47,985 nucleotides of DNA from NCBI GenBank assembly GCA_002441425.1, contig DJWB01000005.1, forward strand, positions 86,705-134,689, written 5' to 3'. Source of the DNA: Patescibacteria group bacterium UBA6241 (GTDB taxonomy: Bacteria; Patescibacteriota; Minisyncoccia; Phycocordibacterales; Phycocordibacteraceae). Position numbers and translations under genes: made by a program. Position 1 is the first letter of the stretch. Every line of letters starts with the position of its first letter. This document shows, piece after piece, positions 6,274 through 9,194 of the stretch. Below the pieces are notes generated by a model, which did not search any database, was not told where the DNA came from, and saw only the letters and a program-made list of their open reading frames with translations.

Positions 6274-6358
6274 GCCCAGGTGGTGAAATTGGTATACACG
6301 CATCCTTGAGGTGGATGTGCCGCAAGGCGTGGAGGTTCAAGTCCTCTCCTGGGCACCA
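6274..6358 (+). tRNA. tRNA-Leu(GAG), CCA encoded
   Basis: GCCCAGG acceptor pairs with CCTGGGC, anticodon stem-loop is CATCC-TTGAGGT-GGATG, long variable arm, T-arm is GGAGG-TTCAAGT-CCTCT. Confidence 0.85.
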
Positions 6359-6366
6359 AAGTAGCT

Positions 6367-6403
6367 CAAGATACAGGGACGCAACCTACGTCCCTGTATC
6401 TTG
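6367..6403. repeat. 15-bp perfect inverted repeat overlapping the -35 of the target-gene promoter
   Basis: CAAGATACAGGGACG-caaccta-CGTCCCTGTATCTTG. The right arm ends inside TTGACA. Confidence 0.8.
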
Positions 6404-6430
6404 ACAAACAGAGTTAATGATATGTATAAT
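6401..6430 (+). promoter_or_regulatory. near-consensus sigma70-type promoter for the DGR target gene
   Basis: TTGACA (6401-6406), 18-nt spacer, TATAAT (6425-6430). Confidence 0.6.
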
Positions 6431-6557
6431 AATAGAAGCTCTTTGAAAGATTCTAAGGAGAGTTCGCTATGGCAGAAGGTGGCTTATACAGGCCCTCTCC
6501 TGCTGTAGCGAACTCATTCACGAGAAGGTTCCAGCAAACTGAAAGAAGGATGACGCA

Positions 6558-7196
6558 ATGGCAAAATCAGCCAGGACCCAATCCAAGTCCATCACCAACA
6601 GCCAGATCGCTCAGATCAACGATCGCCTGGCCACCCAGCTCCGCAACTCCGGCCTCCCGGCTGAGGGTGTGCAGAGCGTCCTCGCAACTCCGGGCGGCGT
6701 GGCCATCGACGAGATGGTCGCGGTGCTTCGCAAACGCGTGGAAGCCAACAGTGACCTCGTCGTCCGCATCGTGTCCGTGAACCGGGCGCGCAGCGGCAAT
6801 GAGGCGCTCAAGGCCACCAGCCGCACCCTCTACGTCGCCAAGGACGTCGTGGACGCGATGCCGAACGGCGAAGGCGATCAGGTTGAGCTCGTGTTCTTCA
6901 AGCCCAAGCCGGAGGAATACACTCGGCCTGGCCTCATGAGCGACGATGATCTGGACAAGGCGCTGGCACTTCGCAACCTCGGTGCCGCCGACCCGTTCTC
7001 GGTCGCCGCACACAACGAGGCCGATTCCGCCTTCGCCGACGAACGCCCGAACGCGACGCACTGGAAGGACAAGGACGACCGCTGGTGCTATGCCGCGTTC
7101 GACCGGTGGAACGGCGAGCGCCTCGTGGGCGTCTACCGCTGCGACGGCGGCTGGGGCGACGGCTGGTGGTTCGTGGGCGTGCGCAAGAGCGCTTAG
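6558..7196 (+). CDS. DGR variable (target) protein, 212 aa, C-terminal VR. Putative C-type-lectin-fold ligand-binding domain
   Basis: GAAGGA SD 7 nt before the ATG, with an in-frame stop at 6540 upstream. High-GC codon usage. The C-terminus ...FDRWNGERLVGVYRCDGGWGDGWWFVGVRKSA is templated by TR. Confidence 0.85.
   Translation: MAKSARTQSKSITNSQIAQINDRLATQLRNSGLPAEGVQSVLATPGGVAIDEMVAVLRKRVEANSDLVVRIVSVNRARSGNEALKATSRTLYVAKDVVDAMPNGEGDQVELVFFKPKPEEYTRPGLMSDDDLDKALALRNLGAADPFSVAAHNEADSAFADERPNATHWKDKDDRWCYAAFDRWNGERLVGVYRCDGGWGDGWWFVGVRKSA
7093..7186 (+). repeat. DGR variable region (VR)
   Basis: Aligns to 7533-7626 at a constant 440-nt offset. 16 mismatches, all where TR has A. All non-A positions are identical. 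Confidence 0.9.
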
Positions 7197-7201
7197 CGCT
7201 C
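7187..7201 (+). promoter_or_regulatory. GC hairpin immediately 3' of VR (candidate DGR target-recognition hairpin)
   Basis: GAGCGC-tta-GCGCTC straddles the TAG stop. It is present only after VR, not after TR. Confidence 0.45.
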
Positions 7202-7251
7202 GGGCATCTCGGAACTCCTTAGTCCCTTTGGGCTACACGCCCTTTCTTGGA

Positions 7252-7292
7252 GGCCATCGCTTGCTCTGCTCGCGGTGGCCTTCCTTTATTTT
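7252..7292 (+). terminator. intrinsic terminator of the target gene
   Basis: GGCCATCGC-11 nt-GCGGTGGCC stem (one G-T pair) followed by TTCCTTTATTTT. Confidence 0.6.
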
Positions 7293-7532
7293 GGTACACT
7301 ACATTCGGCACTAGGCGAATATGTGGGTGAGCACGTCTCTCCCGCTGCCGAAGCCAGTATCCGTACGCTCAGAATAGGGAAGGACATGCGCCTTCGCTAG
7401 CGTGGCGTACGCAGAAACTTCATACAATGAAGATACTTGGTGCGAGGCGCTGAGGCATTGCGATGCCGGATTAGATTCAACCCGAAGAACCTTCTACGGG
7501 CGGTGGTACAGATGGCGCCTCGTACAATTCGT

Positions 7533-7626
7533 CCGCGTTCAACCGGTGGAACGACGAGCGCAACGTGAACGTCAACCGCAACGACAACGACTGGAACGAC
7601 AACTGGTGGTTCGTGGGCGTGCGCAA
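7533..7626 (+). repeat. DGR template repeat (TR), non-coding
   Basis: 25 adenines including 9 AAC codons in the VR reading frame. Differs from VR only at 16 of those adenines. The 3' block CTGGTGGTTCGTGGGCGTGCGCAA is identical in both copies. Confidence 0.9.
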
Positions 7627-7636
7627 CTATCCTTCA

Positions 7637-7984
7637 TTATGAACGCCCGCCCCGCTGCGGGTGTTCGTTTTTCCGTACGATCTGTCCGTACCATCCCGTG
7701 AGCTGCTTGCCTGCATCCTCGAGCGGAACGGAGAGCGCCGCATACTTGTTCGTCTCAAGTGATCCAGTCTCCCATAGCACCATAAGCAGTATCTTTAGAG
7801 TATCTAGCTTGCGTATTGCAAGCCGTATCCAAGGCTCCTTCTCTGCAGATCCAAGGAAGGTTGCAGATGCAATTGCTTCTATGCATTCAATAAGTAGCCC
7901 ATCTACGCGGAGTCCGAGTGTGTATCGGTGGGTTTTGGGAAGCTTTTGATAGTATTGGTACCAAAGTAAATATGCTGCCTTCAA
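7637..7984 (-). CDS. avd: Avd-like accessory variability determinant (four-helix-bundle protein). The 5' end appears displaced by a frameshift at a C9 tract
   Basis: LPKTHRYTLGLRVD...AIRKLDTLKILLMVLWETGSLETNKYAALS...GKQLTGW resembles, from my recollection, the CPR four-helix-bundle/Avd family. The called start is a TTG with no SD. An ATG at 8027 joins this frame if the tract is one nt shorter. Confidence 0.7.
   Translation of the reverse strand: MKAAYLLWYQYYQKLPKTHRYTLGLRVDGLLIECIEAIASATFLGSAEKEPWIRLAIRKLDTLKILLMVLWETGSLETNKYAALSVPLEDAGKQLTGWYGQIVRKNEHPQRGGRS
7641..7672 (+). terminator. terminator-like hairpin 15 nt after TR
   Basis: GAACGCCCGC-cccgct-GCGGGTGTTC followed by GTTTTTCC. It lies inside the 3' end of avd on the opposite strand. 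Confidence 0.5.
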
Positions 7985-8009
7985 ACGTTCAAGAACAGGT
8001 AGAAGTTTC

Positions 8010-8018
8010 GGGGGGGGG
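8010..8018. repeat. G9/C9 homopolymer tract inside the avd 5' region
   Basis: Nine consecutive G on the + strand, counted directly. Confidence 0.9.
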
Positions 8019-8065
8019 TTGAACCATATGATGTCTGTGCGCTTAAGTACGAGGATATCATCTCA

Positions 8066-9049
8066 ATGGACAATCTCCTTGCTGCGTGGCGTGAGTTTTT
8101 AAAAGGAAAGCGAAAGAAGCGTGATGTGCAAGAGTTTGAGCGCAACCTGATGTCTAATATCGTATCGCTCCACACAGATCTTGTAAGAAAGGCTTATGTA
8201 CACGGTGGCTACCGTGAGTTTAGAATAAATGATCCGAAAGCGCGTGACATACACAAGGCGAGTGTGCGTGACCGACTTTTGCATCATGCTGTGTATCGCA
8301 TTCTCTACCCGGTATTTGATCGGAGTTTTATAGCAGACTCTTTCTCTTGCAGGGAAGGAAAGGGAACCCACAAAGCAATAAAACGCTTCGGGTCTTTTGC
8401 GTTCAAGATCTCAAAGAATCATACTCGCACTCTTTGGATCTTGAAGTGTGATATACGAAAGTTCTTCGCGTCTATAGACCATCAACGATTAACGAACATT
8501 CTTGAAGAACGGATTCCCAACCAAAATATACTGTGGCTCCTATCTGTCATTATAAAAAGTTTTCAGATTAATGGACAGGCAAAAGGGCTTCCACTCGGGA
8601 ATCTAACGAGCCAACTTCTCGTAAATATTTACATGAATGAGTTTGATCAATTCGTAAAGCATCAGCTCAAGGTGAAGGCGTATATTCGTTATGCAGACGA
8701 CTTTGTCCTTTTCTCTTCAGACAAAAGAGAGTTAGAAAAGATGCTGGTGTACATAGAAACATTCCTTAGAGACAATCTAAGTCTTACTCTTCATCCCAAG
8801 AAAGTTTCCATACGAACCCTCGCTTCGGGTGTTGATTTCCTAGGGTGGGTACATTTCCCTGATCATCGTGTCTTGCGCACTACAAGCAGGCGGCGCATGT
8901 TTCGCCGTCTCAAGAAGACCGCATACAGAAGAGATAGTGTAGGCTCTTATATAGGCCTTTTAGGGTACGGCAATAGCCAGAAGCTCAAGAAGGAAATAAA
9001 TATAGCGAGCGAACAAATGAGCAAGAGAAATGGCCTGGGCACCCGATGA
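8066..9049 (+). CDS. DGR reverse transcriptase
   Basis: YADDFVLF catalytic box, GLPLGNLTSQLLVNIYMNEFD (the DGR-specific LGxxxSQ motif), SFSCREGKGTHKA. 327 aa with no maturase or endonuclease tail. GAGGA lies 10 nt upstream of the ATG. Confidence 0.9.
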   Translation: MDNLLAAWREFLKGKRKKRDVQEFERNLMSNIVSLHTDLVRKAYVHGGYREFRINDPKARDIHKASVRDRLLHHAVYRILYPVFDRSFIADSFSCREGKGTHKAIKRFGSFAFKISKNHTRTLWILKCDIRKFFASIDHQRLTNILEERIPNQNILWLLSVIIKSFQINGQAKGLPLGNLTSQLLVNIYMNEFDQFVKHQLKVKAYIRYADDFVLFSSDKRELEKMLVYIETFLRDNLSLTLHPKKVSIRTLASGVDFLGWVHFPDHRVLRTTSRRRMFRRLKKTAYRRDSVGSYIGLLGYGNSQKLKKEINIASEQMSKRNGLGTR

Positions 9050-9111: not shown

Positions 9112-9184
9112 GGCGGCTATGGTGTAACGGTTAACACTACAGATTGTGGTTCTGTCAATTCGGGTTCGATTCCCGGTAGCCGCC
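9112..9184 (+). tRNA. tRNA-His(GTG) with encoded G-1
   Basis: G-GCGGCTA acceptor pairs with TAGCCGC-C, anticodon stem-loop is ACAGA-TTGTGGT-TCTGT, T-arm is TCGGG-TTCGATT-CCCGG. Confidence 0.8.
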
Positions 9185-9194
9185 CCCAGAATAT

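Follow-up and report, generated by a model that had tools for sequence, protein, structure and literature searches.

A GC-rich target gene within a Patescibacteria diversity-generating retroelement: a compositional mosaic that is probably a property of the element's family

How can one gene of a small genetic element be 22 GC points richer than another gene of the same element? The question is raised by a locus in a stretch of 47,985 nucleotides (the window) from contig DJWB01000005.1 of Patescibacteria group bacterium UBA6241, whose 686-kb genome has a GC content of 48% and is assembled in five contigs. The locus is a complete diversity-generating retroelement (DGR) situated between the genes for tRNA-Leu(GAG) and tRNA-His(GTG) (Table 1). 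It comprises a target gene encoding the variable protein, a template repeat (TR), the accessory gene avd and a gene for a reverse transcriptase (RT), and the 22 points separate the target from the RT gene. An earlier reading of the sequence by eye, referred to below as the original prediction, described the DGR as a mosaic of a high-GC target-TR module and a low-GC avd-RT module, and suggested that the two have different origins, through module swapping or a high-GC donor, or that the assembly is chimeric. The analysis presented here indicates that the mosaic is probably a conserved property of a Patescibacteria DGR family, and neither an assembly scar nor the mark of a single foreign import.

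When compared with 640-nt windows from the whole genome (mean 48.1%, sd 3.5), the target gene is found at z ~ +5. The GC contents of its codon positions 1, 2 and 3 are 65.7, 46.0 and 85.4%, and 200-nt windows over the gene range from 0.59 to 0.705. The high GC of the target and its very GC-rich third positions, estimated earlier from hand counts, are thereby confirmed. The RT gene was believed to have about 37% GC; this is correct locally, 37-40% being found only in 8400-8800, but the whole gene has 43.6% GC and 45.7% GC at third codon positions (GC3). It falls at the 6.6th percentile of genome windows of the same size (z = -1.4) and is no outlier. Also avd, which was placed in the low-GC module, is at host level with 50.0%. 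Neither does the profile contain a single switch at ~7640. GC steps up at the start codon of the target and down to 55.4% in the spacer right after the stop codon; it is then 60.6% in the TR and ~50% in avd, from ~7640, and declines through the RT gene. The spacer is within the top 6.5% of the intergenic stretches of the host. Dinucleotide signatures normalised for base composition are host-like for RT, avd and the spacer plus TR, while the target is a mild outlier (top 7.5% of random windows). What stands of the proposed mosaic is thus its GC-rich target, since the supposedly low-GC half resembles the host both in GC and in dinucleotides. The outlier is the target coding sequence (CDS), accompanied in this window by a mildly raised spacer.

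Homologues of the target were found as 62 proteins and in 80 genomic loci, almost all of them in metagenome-assembled genomes (MAGs) labelled as Patescibacteria. The closest protein relatives are 83, 82 and 74% identical, and a metagenome scan with the single target protein returned only two distant loci. The family comparison includes the 73 loci with usable flanks, where flank GC ranges from 32 to 61%. Mean GC is 58.2% for the targets and 45.3% for the flanks (+12.9 points), and the target is the richer at 71 of the 73 loci. Among 34 loci with the same architecture as the present one, target GC exceeds RT GC in all except one (33/34, mean +13.6 points), and the RT and avd genes lie 3.3 and 2.7 points, respectively, below the flank. 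The RT genes follow the flanking DNA closely (r = 0.80, slope 0.84), while the targets barely do so (r = 0.45, slope 0.31).

The distribution of the excess over the element was calculated for 42 loci. Relative to the flank, the 5' leader is at -1.7 points, the CDS outside the variable repeat (VR) at +9.7, the VR at +21.7, the spacer at -0.3 and the TR at +9.2. In the family targets GC3 is 0.63 already in the first ten codons, and GC is 0.46 within 50 nt past the stop codon. That the TR is GC-rich is explained solely by its being a copy of the 3' end of the target gene, the VR. Targets with a TR have an excess of +10.8 points, compared with +15.4 for 25 targets that lack both a TR in the 3 kb downstream and an RT gene within 5 kb. 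As the lack of a neighbouring TR and RT does not lower the GC of the target, the trait belongs to the gene and not to ongoing retrohoming.

A one-off high-GC donor, as envisaged in the original prediction, is not supported by this distribution, the homologues being almost all from Patescibacteria and the excess being displayed in hosts of 32-61% GC. Moreover, target GC3 is 0.82-0.90 in several loci (0.85 here), which is above the 0.64-0.80 found for genes of the GC-richest hosts sampled. Among the 62 protein matches and 80 loci, no closest homologue belonged to a high-GC donor lineage outside Patescibacteria. Five loci (L014, L026, L034, L071, and L072) have targets in MAGs labelled Gammaproteobacteria, Methylocystis, Bdellovibrionales or Bacteroidota, and these contigs may be mis-binned Patescibacteria. 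The loci L096-L108, all from one genus, display an unusually wide spread of GC around rplS, from ~48% to ~63%.

The ends of the element could be determined by comparison with its closest relative, G022, which shares 91% DNA identity with the window over rplS and the tRNA-Leu gene, and whose RplS and MscL proteins are 95 and 91% identical to those encoded in the window. In G022 the tRNA-Leu gene is followed by 68 nt and then the tRNA-His gene, that is, by an empty site, and the site is empty in G021 as well. The window has 2,686 extra bases compared with G022. These are bounded by two copies of CCTGGGCACC, and beyond the right copy, through which the final codons of the RT open reading frame (ORF) pass, the sequence runs on exactly as the empty site of G022. 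This alignment shows the whole DGR to be one 2.7-kb insertion, recent relative to the sister species. Since the empty site and the tRNA-end repeat bracket the whole DGR, its GC-rich part is an internal portion of a single integrated element. The genes of the insert are target, avd and RT only; it holds no integrase gene, and a recombinase acting in trans was not searched for.

In a general sense, the relatives lend support to module swapping. A young clade of 14 targets with 84-96% nucleotide identity occurs in different species with flanks of 36-59.5% GC. The target cassette is found alone in many genomes, and the solo copies in the young clade share a block reaching from about -25/-190 to +670/+790 around the gene, outside which the flanks are unalignable. 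When the same DGR-linked pairs of this clade are compared, divergence at 4-fold degenerate sites is 0.02-0.38 in the target, 0.33-0.94 in avd and 1.26-1.94 in RT, so that avd and RT are 3-14 times more diverged than the target at synonymous sites. It was estimated that selection for GC alone would make synonymous change only ~12% slower, and the gradient is therefore taken to reflect a younger shared ancestry of the target-TR block. Loci L030 and L031 are 98-99% identical over the leader, CDS, spacer and TR, compared with 92% in the upstream DNA and 91% in avd. This is a recombination tract with its right end at the TR/avd junction, the same boundary that was pointed out in the original prediction. 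In a survey of the genus, the RT clade was found in 20 of 40 genomes and the target family in only 5 of 36, and elsewhere in the genus RTs of this clade are accompanied by target and avd genes of other families. The distance matrices of target and RT are weakly correlated (Mantel r = 0.31, p = 0.001) and the nearest neighbour is the same in 6 of 33 cases, a comparison too deep to decide on module exchange. In the relatives, the leader-target-spacer-TR block has been exchanged horizontally far more recently than avd and RT. Within this family the two modules do have separate histories, in part as proposed, while a single high-GC donor is not supported.

The young clade also provides information on whether the high GC is maintained or decaying. 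For synonymous changes polarised by parsimony, which is imperfect, the GC-to-AT:AT-to-GC ratio was 117:58 on the tips and 43:31 on the internal branches. A ratio of ~3.6:1 was calculated for neutral decay to a host equilibrium GC3 of ~0.40, while an equilibrium GC3 near 0.66 follows from the counts on internal branches. For hosts with less than 45% GC the ratio is 65:36, for those with at least 50% GC it is 36:13, and GC3 in this clade is 0.70-0.77 whatever the GC of the host (0.36-0.595). The substitution spectrum and the independence of the host are better explained by an active GC-ward force than by a donor signature carried along passively.

The codon usage of the target was compared with that of the ribosomal-protein genes of its host. 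For each 4-fold box the genome has GNN and UNN tRNAs. The ribosomal-protein genes favour T- or A-ending codons in all eight of these boxes and the target C- or G-ending ones, namely GCC, GGC, CCG, GTC/GTG, CTC, and CGC; the codon shares are 0.78 vs. 0.18 for GGC, 0.50 vs. 0.12 for GCC and 0.75 vs. 0.15 for CCG. When it comes to the 2-fold boxes, both prefer the C-ending codon. The GC3 of the ribosomal-protein operon is 0.36-0.64. The relative synonymous codon usage (RSCU) of the target correlates with that of genes from high-GC (~60%) Patescibacteria (r = 0.85-0.86), while the correlation with this host is ~0. Avoidance of adenine was considered as a cause and rejected, as T is depleted almost like A at third positions (A 0.056, T 0.089; host 0.26, 0.31).

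The transcript of the target is predicted to be strongly folded. A folding energy of -299 kcal/mol was calculated for the CDS, corresponding to z = -4.35 compared with dinucleotide shuffles and -3.5 compared with synonymous-codon permutations. For 16 target homologues the mean z is -1.64, 15 of the values being negative, vs. -0.35 for their RT genes (paired Wilcoxon p = 0.018), and the mean folding energies are -0.40 and -0.26 kcal/mol per nt, respectively. The folding of the target, the leader hairpin and the terminal hairpin are together consistent with a stable, tightly folded message.

Several other explanations of the mosaic have to be weighed against a conserved family property. In a chimeric assembly, reads from a high-GC organism would have been joined in at ~6360-6560 and 7600-7700, an explanation that can practically be discarded. 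The repeat of the tRNA-Leu end and the empty site in the sister genomes form clean junctions, and these mark the ends of the whole DGR, not of its GC-rich part. The VR and TR differ at TR adenines only, the TR is directly followed by avd and RT, as in 33-37 independent assemblies, and the same mosaic is seen in MAGs from many studies. It should be mentioned, however, that a join of this kind may be present in another part of the assembly. At the end of contig C3, ~3 kb (C3:88300-91342, outside the window) with the 5' part of tuf, fusA and an end ORF have 58-72% GC and an N gap, and identity to the closest relative drops from 92% to ~65% inside tuf at ~88,570, 2.8 kb before the contig end. A second fusA-tuf pair, of normal GC, is found at the start of contig C2. 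The end of C3 is either an assembly chimera or a xenologous fusA; no high-GC congener was found as the donor of this fusA, no member of the genus exceeding ~68% identity. Translational selection, by which a very highly expressed target would use the codons preferred by its host, has just as little credibility. It is already contradicted by the opposite preferences in all eight 4-fold boxes, and neither the GC3 of the ribosomal-protein operon nor the RSCU correlation of ~0 with host genes fits with it, even if the candidate promoter has a perfect consensus match and the preference for C-ending codons in 2-fold boxes is common to the target and the ribosomal-protein genes.

More weight must be given to import without maintenance, where the target-TR block was recently recombined from a Patescibacterium of ~60-65% GC and has retained the composition of the donor, avd and RT being older residents. 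Block-level exchange is documented in relatives, the RSCU resembles that of high-GC Patescibacteria genes and not that of the host, and genomes of the same genus reach ~61-63% GC. In this window the spacer (55%) and the TR (61%) are raised too, the DGRs of high-GC hosts are uniformly GC-rich, and there is a 2:1 GC-to-AT excess on the tip branches. Import without maintenance is still considered unlikely. The excess is present in 71 of 73 hosts, yet only ~8 hosts have at least 56% GC, and several targets have a GC3 above that of the GC-richest hosts sampled. In the young clade GC3 is unrelated to host GC, the substitution bias is no stronger in low-GC hosts, and the equilibrium GC3 on internal branches is near 0.66; across the family the leader and spacer, which belong to this block too, have the GC of the flank. 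GC-biased gene conversion would require no selection on the sequence, as frequent recombination and biased heteroduplex repair could by themselves raise the GC of the block. The occurrence of this process in bacteria is debated. Recombination is reportedly linked to GC3 in bacteria. Common ancestry is most recent in the GC-rich segment, and it is there that recombination tracts were mapped; the GC-to-AT:AT-to-GC ratio goes from 2.0 on tips to 1.4 on internal branches, as a fixation bias predicts, and GC at the first and second codon positions of the target is raised besides GC3. However, inside the same exchanged tracts the leader (-1.7) and the 340-nt spacer (-0.3) are at flank GC, and GC falls within 50 nt of the stop codon. 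The avd gene is intermediate in divergence but not in GC (-2.7 points). As a full explanation, gene conversion is for these reasons regarded as improbable.

According to the reading preferred here, that of a mosaic conserved in the family, the CDS of the variable protein would be kept rich in GC, above all at third positions, codons ending in C being preferred, and the base composition of avd and RT would drift with whichever host carries them. An active force would be needed to keep the synonymous sites of the target G or C. The favoured candidate is selection toward an mRNA that is tightly folded and may be long-lived, although its chances are put clearly below even. GC-biased gene conversion tied to the frequent recombination of the block is a somewhat weaker candidate for this role, and a standing reservoir in Patescibacteria of ~60% GC is a source with slightly poorer prospects again. 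A wider proposal, which is tentative, is that Patescibacteria keep mobile single-gene cassettes in a GC-rich "dialect" that is actively maintained irrespective of host composition. The DGR targets would then be the clearest case of cassettes that move alone and plug into a resident avd-RT pair.

Several observations weigh against a maintained family trait or limit it. The candidate causes of the GC-richness are structured mRNA, biased gene conversion, and a reservoir in high-GC Patescibacteria. The mRNA-structure signal is modest, comes from 16 related sequences and may be a by-product. Selection for GC cannot explain the 3-14-fold lower divergence of the target, so recombination must contribute. 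Some net decay is possible in view of the 2:1 GC-to-AT excess on tips, and high GC is not indispensable, as GC3 does not exceed 0.50 in ~10 of the 80 homologues. A source within the phylum is also possible, considering that the codon usage is like that of high-GC Patescibacteria and that there are congeners of ~61-63% GC. Finally, the 55.4% GC of the spacer in this window suits an imported block better than the family average does.

It is common practice, also in DGR surveys (Wu et al., 2018, PMC5758913), to interpret deviating GC as evidence of mis-assembly or of a recent foreign origin. This interpretation fails here, where the deviation is a stable trait of one DGR module. If the target-TR block does circulate separately from avd and RT, the DGRs of these tiny symbiotic bacteria would evolve in a modular manner, with binding-protein cassettes swapped across species and the mutagenesis machinery left behind. 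If the dialect is real, composition would be the signature of a distinct gene pool that circulates horizontally under a selective regime of its own (for instance hyper-stable mRNAs), and no foreign donor would be involved. The upkeep of G and C at silent sites against the mutational bias of the host would offer a tractable case for distinguishing selection on mRNA from biased gene conversion in bacteria. What is added here is the empty-site proof of one insertion, the rejection of host-preferred codons, the divergence gradient with a mapped recombination boundary, the polarised substitution spectrum and the paired mRNA-folding test.

The target gene is not the only GC-rich gene in this genome. 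There are ~20 other single-gene islands of 58-69% GC, and 23 ORFs have GC3 above 0.66. A Pfam search assigned no family to 18 of 20 other GC-rich ORFs, the two matches being Band_7 and orotidine 5'-monophosphate (OMP) decarboxylase. Many of the proteins encoded by the islands start with what by eye looks like a signal peptide, a lipoprotein signal or a hydrophobic stretch. One of the islands is found inside the ribosomal-protein operon (C3:77155-77755), and pyrF (C4:14972-15712) is GC-rich as well.

The target protein has no Pfam family either. An AlphaFold2 model (predicted local distance difference test, pLDDT, 90) places a C-type-lectin/formylglycine-generating enzyme (FGE)-like fold at residues ~62-212. 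VIA-align over these residues gave matches mostly to C-type-lectin and FGE-like domains, all with Z < 8; among them are the DGR proteins Mtd (Z 5.4, 111 aligned) and TvpA (Z 5.4, 128 aligned), and the best match, Bd2740 (Z 7.2). Foldseek with the same model found no matches in the PDB. The variable protein family is probably being diversified in nature. Over 9 kb, two MAGs (loci L076 and L077) share 99.5% identity, and their TRs do not differ; the 31 differences between their targets are without exception inside the VR, where there is also a 3-nt length change. This pair is, as judged from the sequences, natural evidence of activity in the DGR family.

The features of the locus are listed in Table 1. 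The TR and VR are 94-nt repeats that are 83% identical, and 16 of 16 mismatches are at TR adenines; family-wide this applies to 92% of the mismatches. No second VR or target was found in this genome. The avd product matches bAvd with E = 1.2e-7 and 32.7 bits, which is under the curated cut-off of 40, and an avd homologue is found at the same place on the minus strand in all 37 related loci where avd was found. The RT is 59-66% identical to RTs that adjoin TR/VR pairs in relatives, and 33-37 other loci have the same arrangement, target(+), TR, avd(-), RT(+). The hairpin following the VR was not called in the terminator scan, which allows loops of 3-8 nt, its loop being ~10 nt by eye. A run of nine Gs is found at 8010-8018, between the divergent starts of avd and RT. 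In-frame reading upstream of the ATG at 8066 gives the RT N-terminus that is conserved in the relatives, but this extension lacks a start codon. Either a sequencing error or a change in the number of Gs in the run could shift the RT start.

Table 1. Features of the DGR locus in the window.
Feature	Position	Strand	Basis
tRNA-Leu(GAG); its 3' end is the integration site	6274..6358	+	ARAGORN; Rfam tRNA, 52 bits
Left copy of the 10-nt direct repeat CCTGGGCACC, the tRNA-Leu 3' end (last 10 nt of the tRNA body)	6348..6357		Alignment with the G022 empty site; read in the sequence
Candidate promoter upstream of the target, TTGACA-18 nt-TATAAT, 12/12 matches	6401..6430	+	Consensus scan (consensus match only)
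Long hairpin in the 5' leader of the target, 24-nt arms	6460..6515	+	Inverted repeat; fold -42 kcal/mol, z = -3.7
DGR target (variable protein) gene, 212 aa, 65.7% GC, GC3 85.4%	6558..7196	+	ORF, composition, homologues, model
VR, 94 nt just before the final codons of the target, 74.5% GC, 9.6% A	7093..7186	+	Repeat family D1; composition
Spacer between target and TR, 55.4% GC	7197..7532		Composition
GC-rich hairpin followed by a T-run, 3' of the VR; terminator-like, or the DGR hairpin after the initiation of mutagenic homing (IMH) site	7249..7292	+	Fold
TR, 94 nt, 60.6% GC, 26.6% A	7533..7626	+	Repeat search, composition
avd (accessory variability determinant), 115 aa, 50.0% GC, opposite to target and RT	7637..7984	-	Pfam bAvd PF22296, weak match
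Terminator-like hairpin directly 3' of the TR, overlapping the 3' end of avd (opposite strand)	7639..7668	+	Terminator scan; fold z = -4.1
DGR reverse transcriptase, 327 aa, 43.6% GC	8066..9049	+	Pfam RVT_1, E = 5.4e-28
Direct repeat CCTGGGCACC (10 nt), right copy; followed by DNA equal to the G022 empty site	9034..9043		Alignment with G022
tRNA-His(GTG); in G022 68 nt after tRNA-Leu	9112..9188	+	ARAGORN; Rfam

The interval between the two tRNA genes seems to be used repeatedly. G028 has a different cassette at the same position (L100, G028:C4), with an 11-nt repeat and a GC-rich gene of 71 codons (GC3 0.86) that encodes a small membrane protein. In G061 another DGR is found in the interval (L137, G061:C53), there without a detected repeat; its RT is of the same clade (65% identical), while its target is of a different family and its avd is 27% identical. 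In several genomes of the genus the interval contains a gene that we take to encode a protein like PduO-type cobalamin adenosyltransferase, a name based on the N-terminal sequence only. The comparison of these genomes suggests that the tRNA-Leu(GAG)/tRNA-His interval is a hot spot in this genus. Association with tRNA genes was rejected as a rule for the family, as the 800 nt upstream of the target contain a tRNA gene in only 3 of the 80 other loci.

The element itself is an ordinary Patescibacteria DGR. It shares with the DGR of Bordetella phage BPP-1 (mtd, avd, TR, brt) an RT, an Avd-like protein, a TR/VR pair with adenine-only differences, and a VR at the 3' end of a gene whose product has a C-terminal C-type-lectin-like fold, here as a model. 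As in BPP-1, the two repeats end in an identical GC-rich stretch and a GC-rich hairpin is found 3' of the VR (features according to PMC5758913). In contrast to BPP-1, the order is target, TR, avd (on the opposite strand) and RT, the TR has its own terminator-like hairpin, the element is chromosomal and inserted in the 3' end of a tRNA gene, and target and RT differ by 22 GC points. The host group and the patchy distribution among close relatives are as for the cellular DGRs of the candidate phyla radiation (CPR)/Patescibacteria, "DGR clade 2" (Roux et al., 2021, PMC8144416), and host and architecture are what suggest that the present DGR belongs to this clade. Clade 2 targets are small and have no transmembrane or other recognisable domain (PMC8144416), and Pfam likewise finds no domain in the present target. 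The 10- to 11-nt repeat of the tRNA-Leu end, and the different cargo found at the same site in G028, are reminiscent of islands and cassettes at tRNA 3' ends, but here the insert is only 2.7 kb without an integrase gene, and the repeat is very short.

Neither a GC mosaic within the element nor independent exchange of target cassettes is described in the two surveys (PMC5758913; PMC8144416), and "GC content" is not mentioned in the text of the latter. In the former, whole DGRs that differ from the host by 5 GC points or more are taken as recently transferred (Wu et al., 2018, PMC5758913). The present DGR is indeed a recent insertion when compared with the sister species, but unlike in such a transfer the deviation is confined to the target CDS and the TR. 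Since it persists across hosts of 32-61% GC, deviating GC is no clock for transfer in this DGR family.

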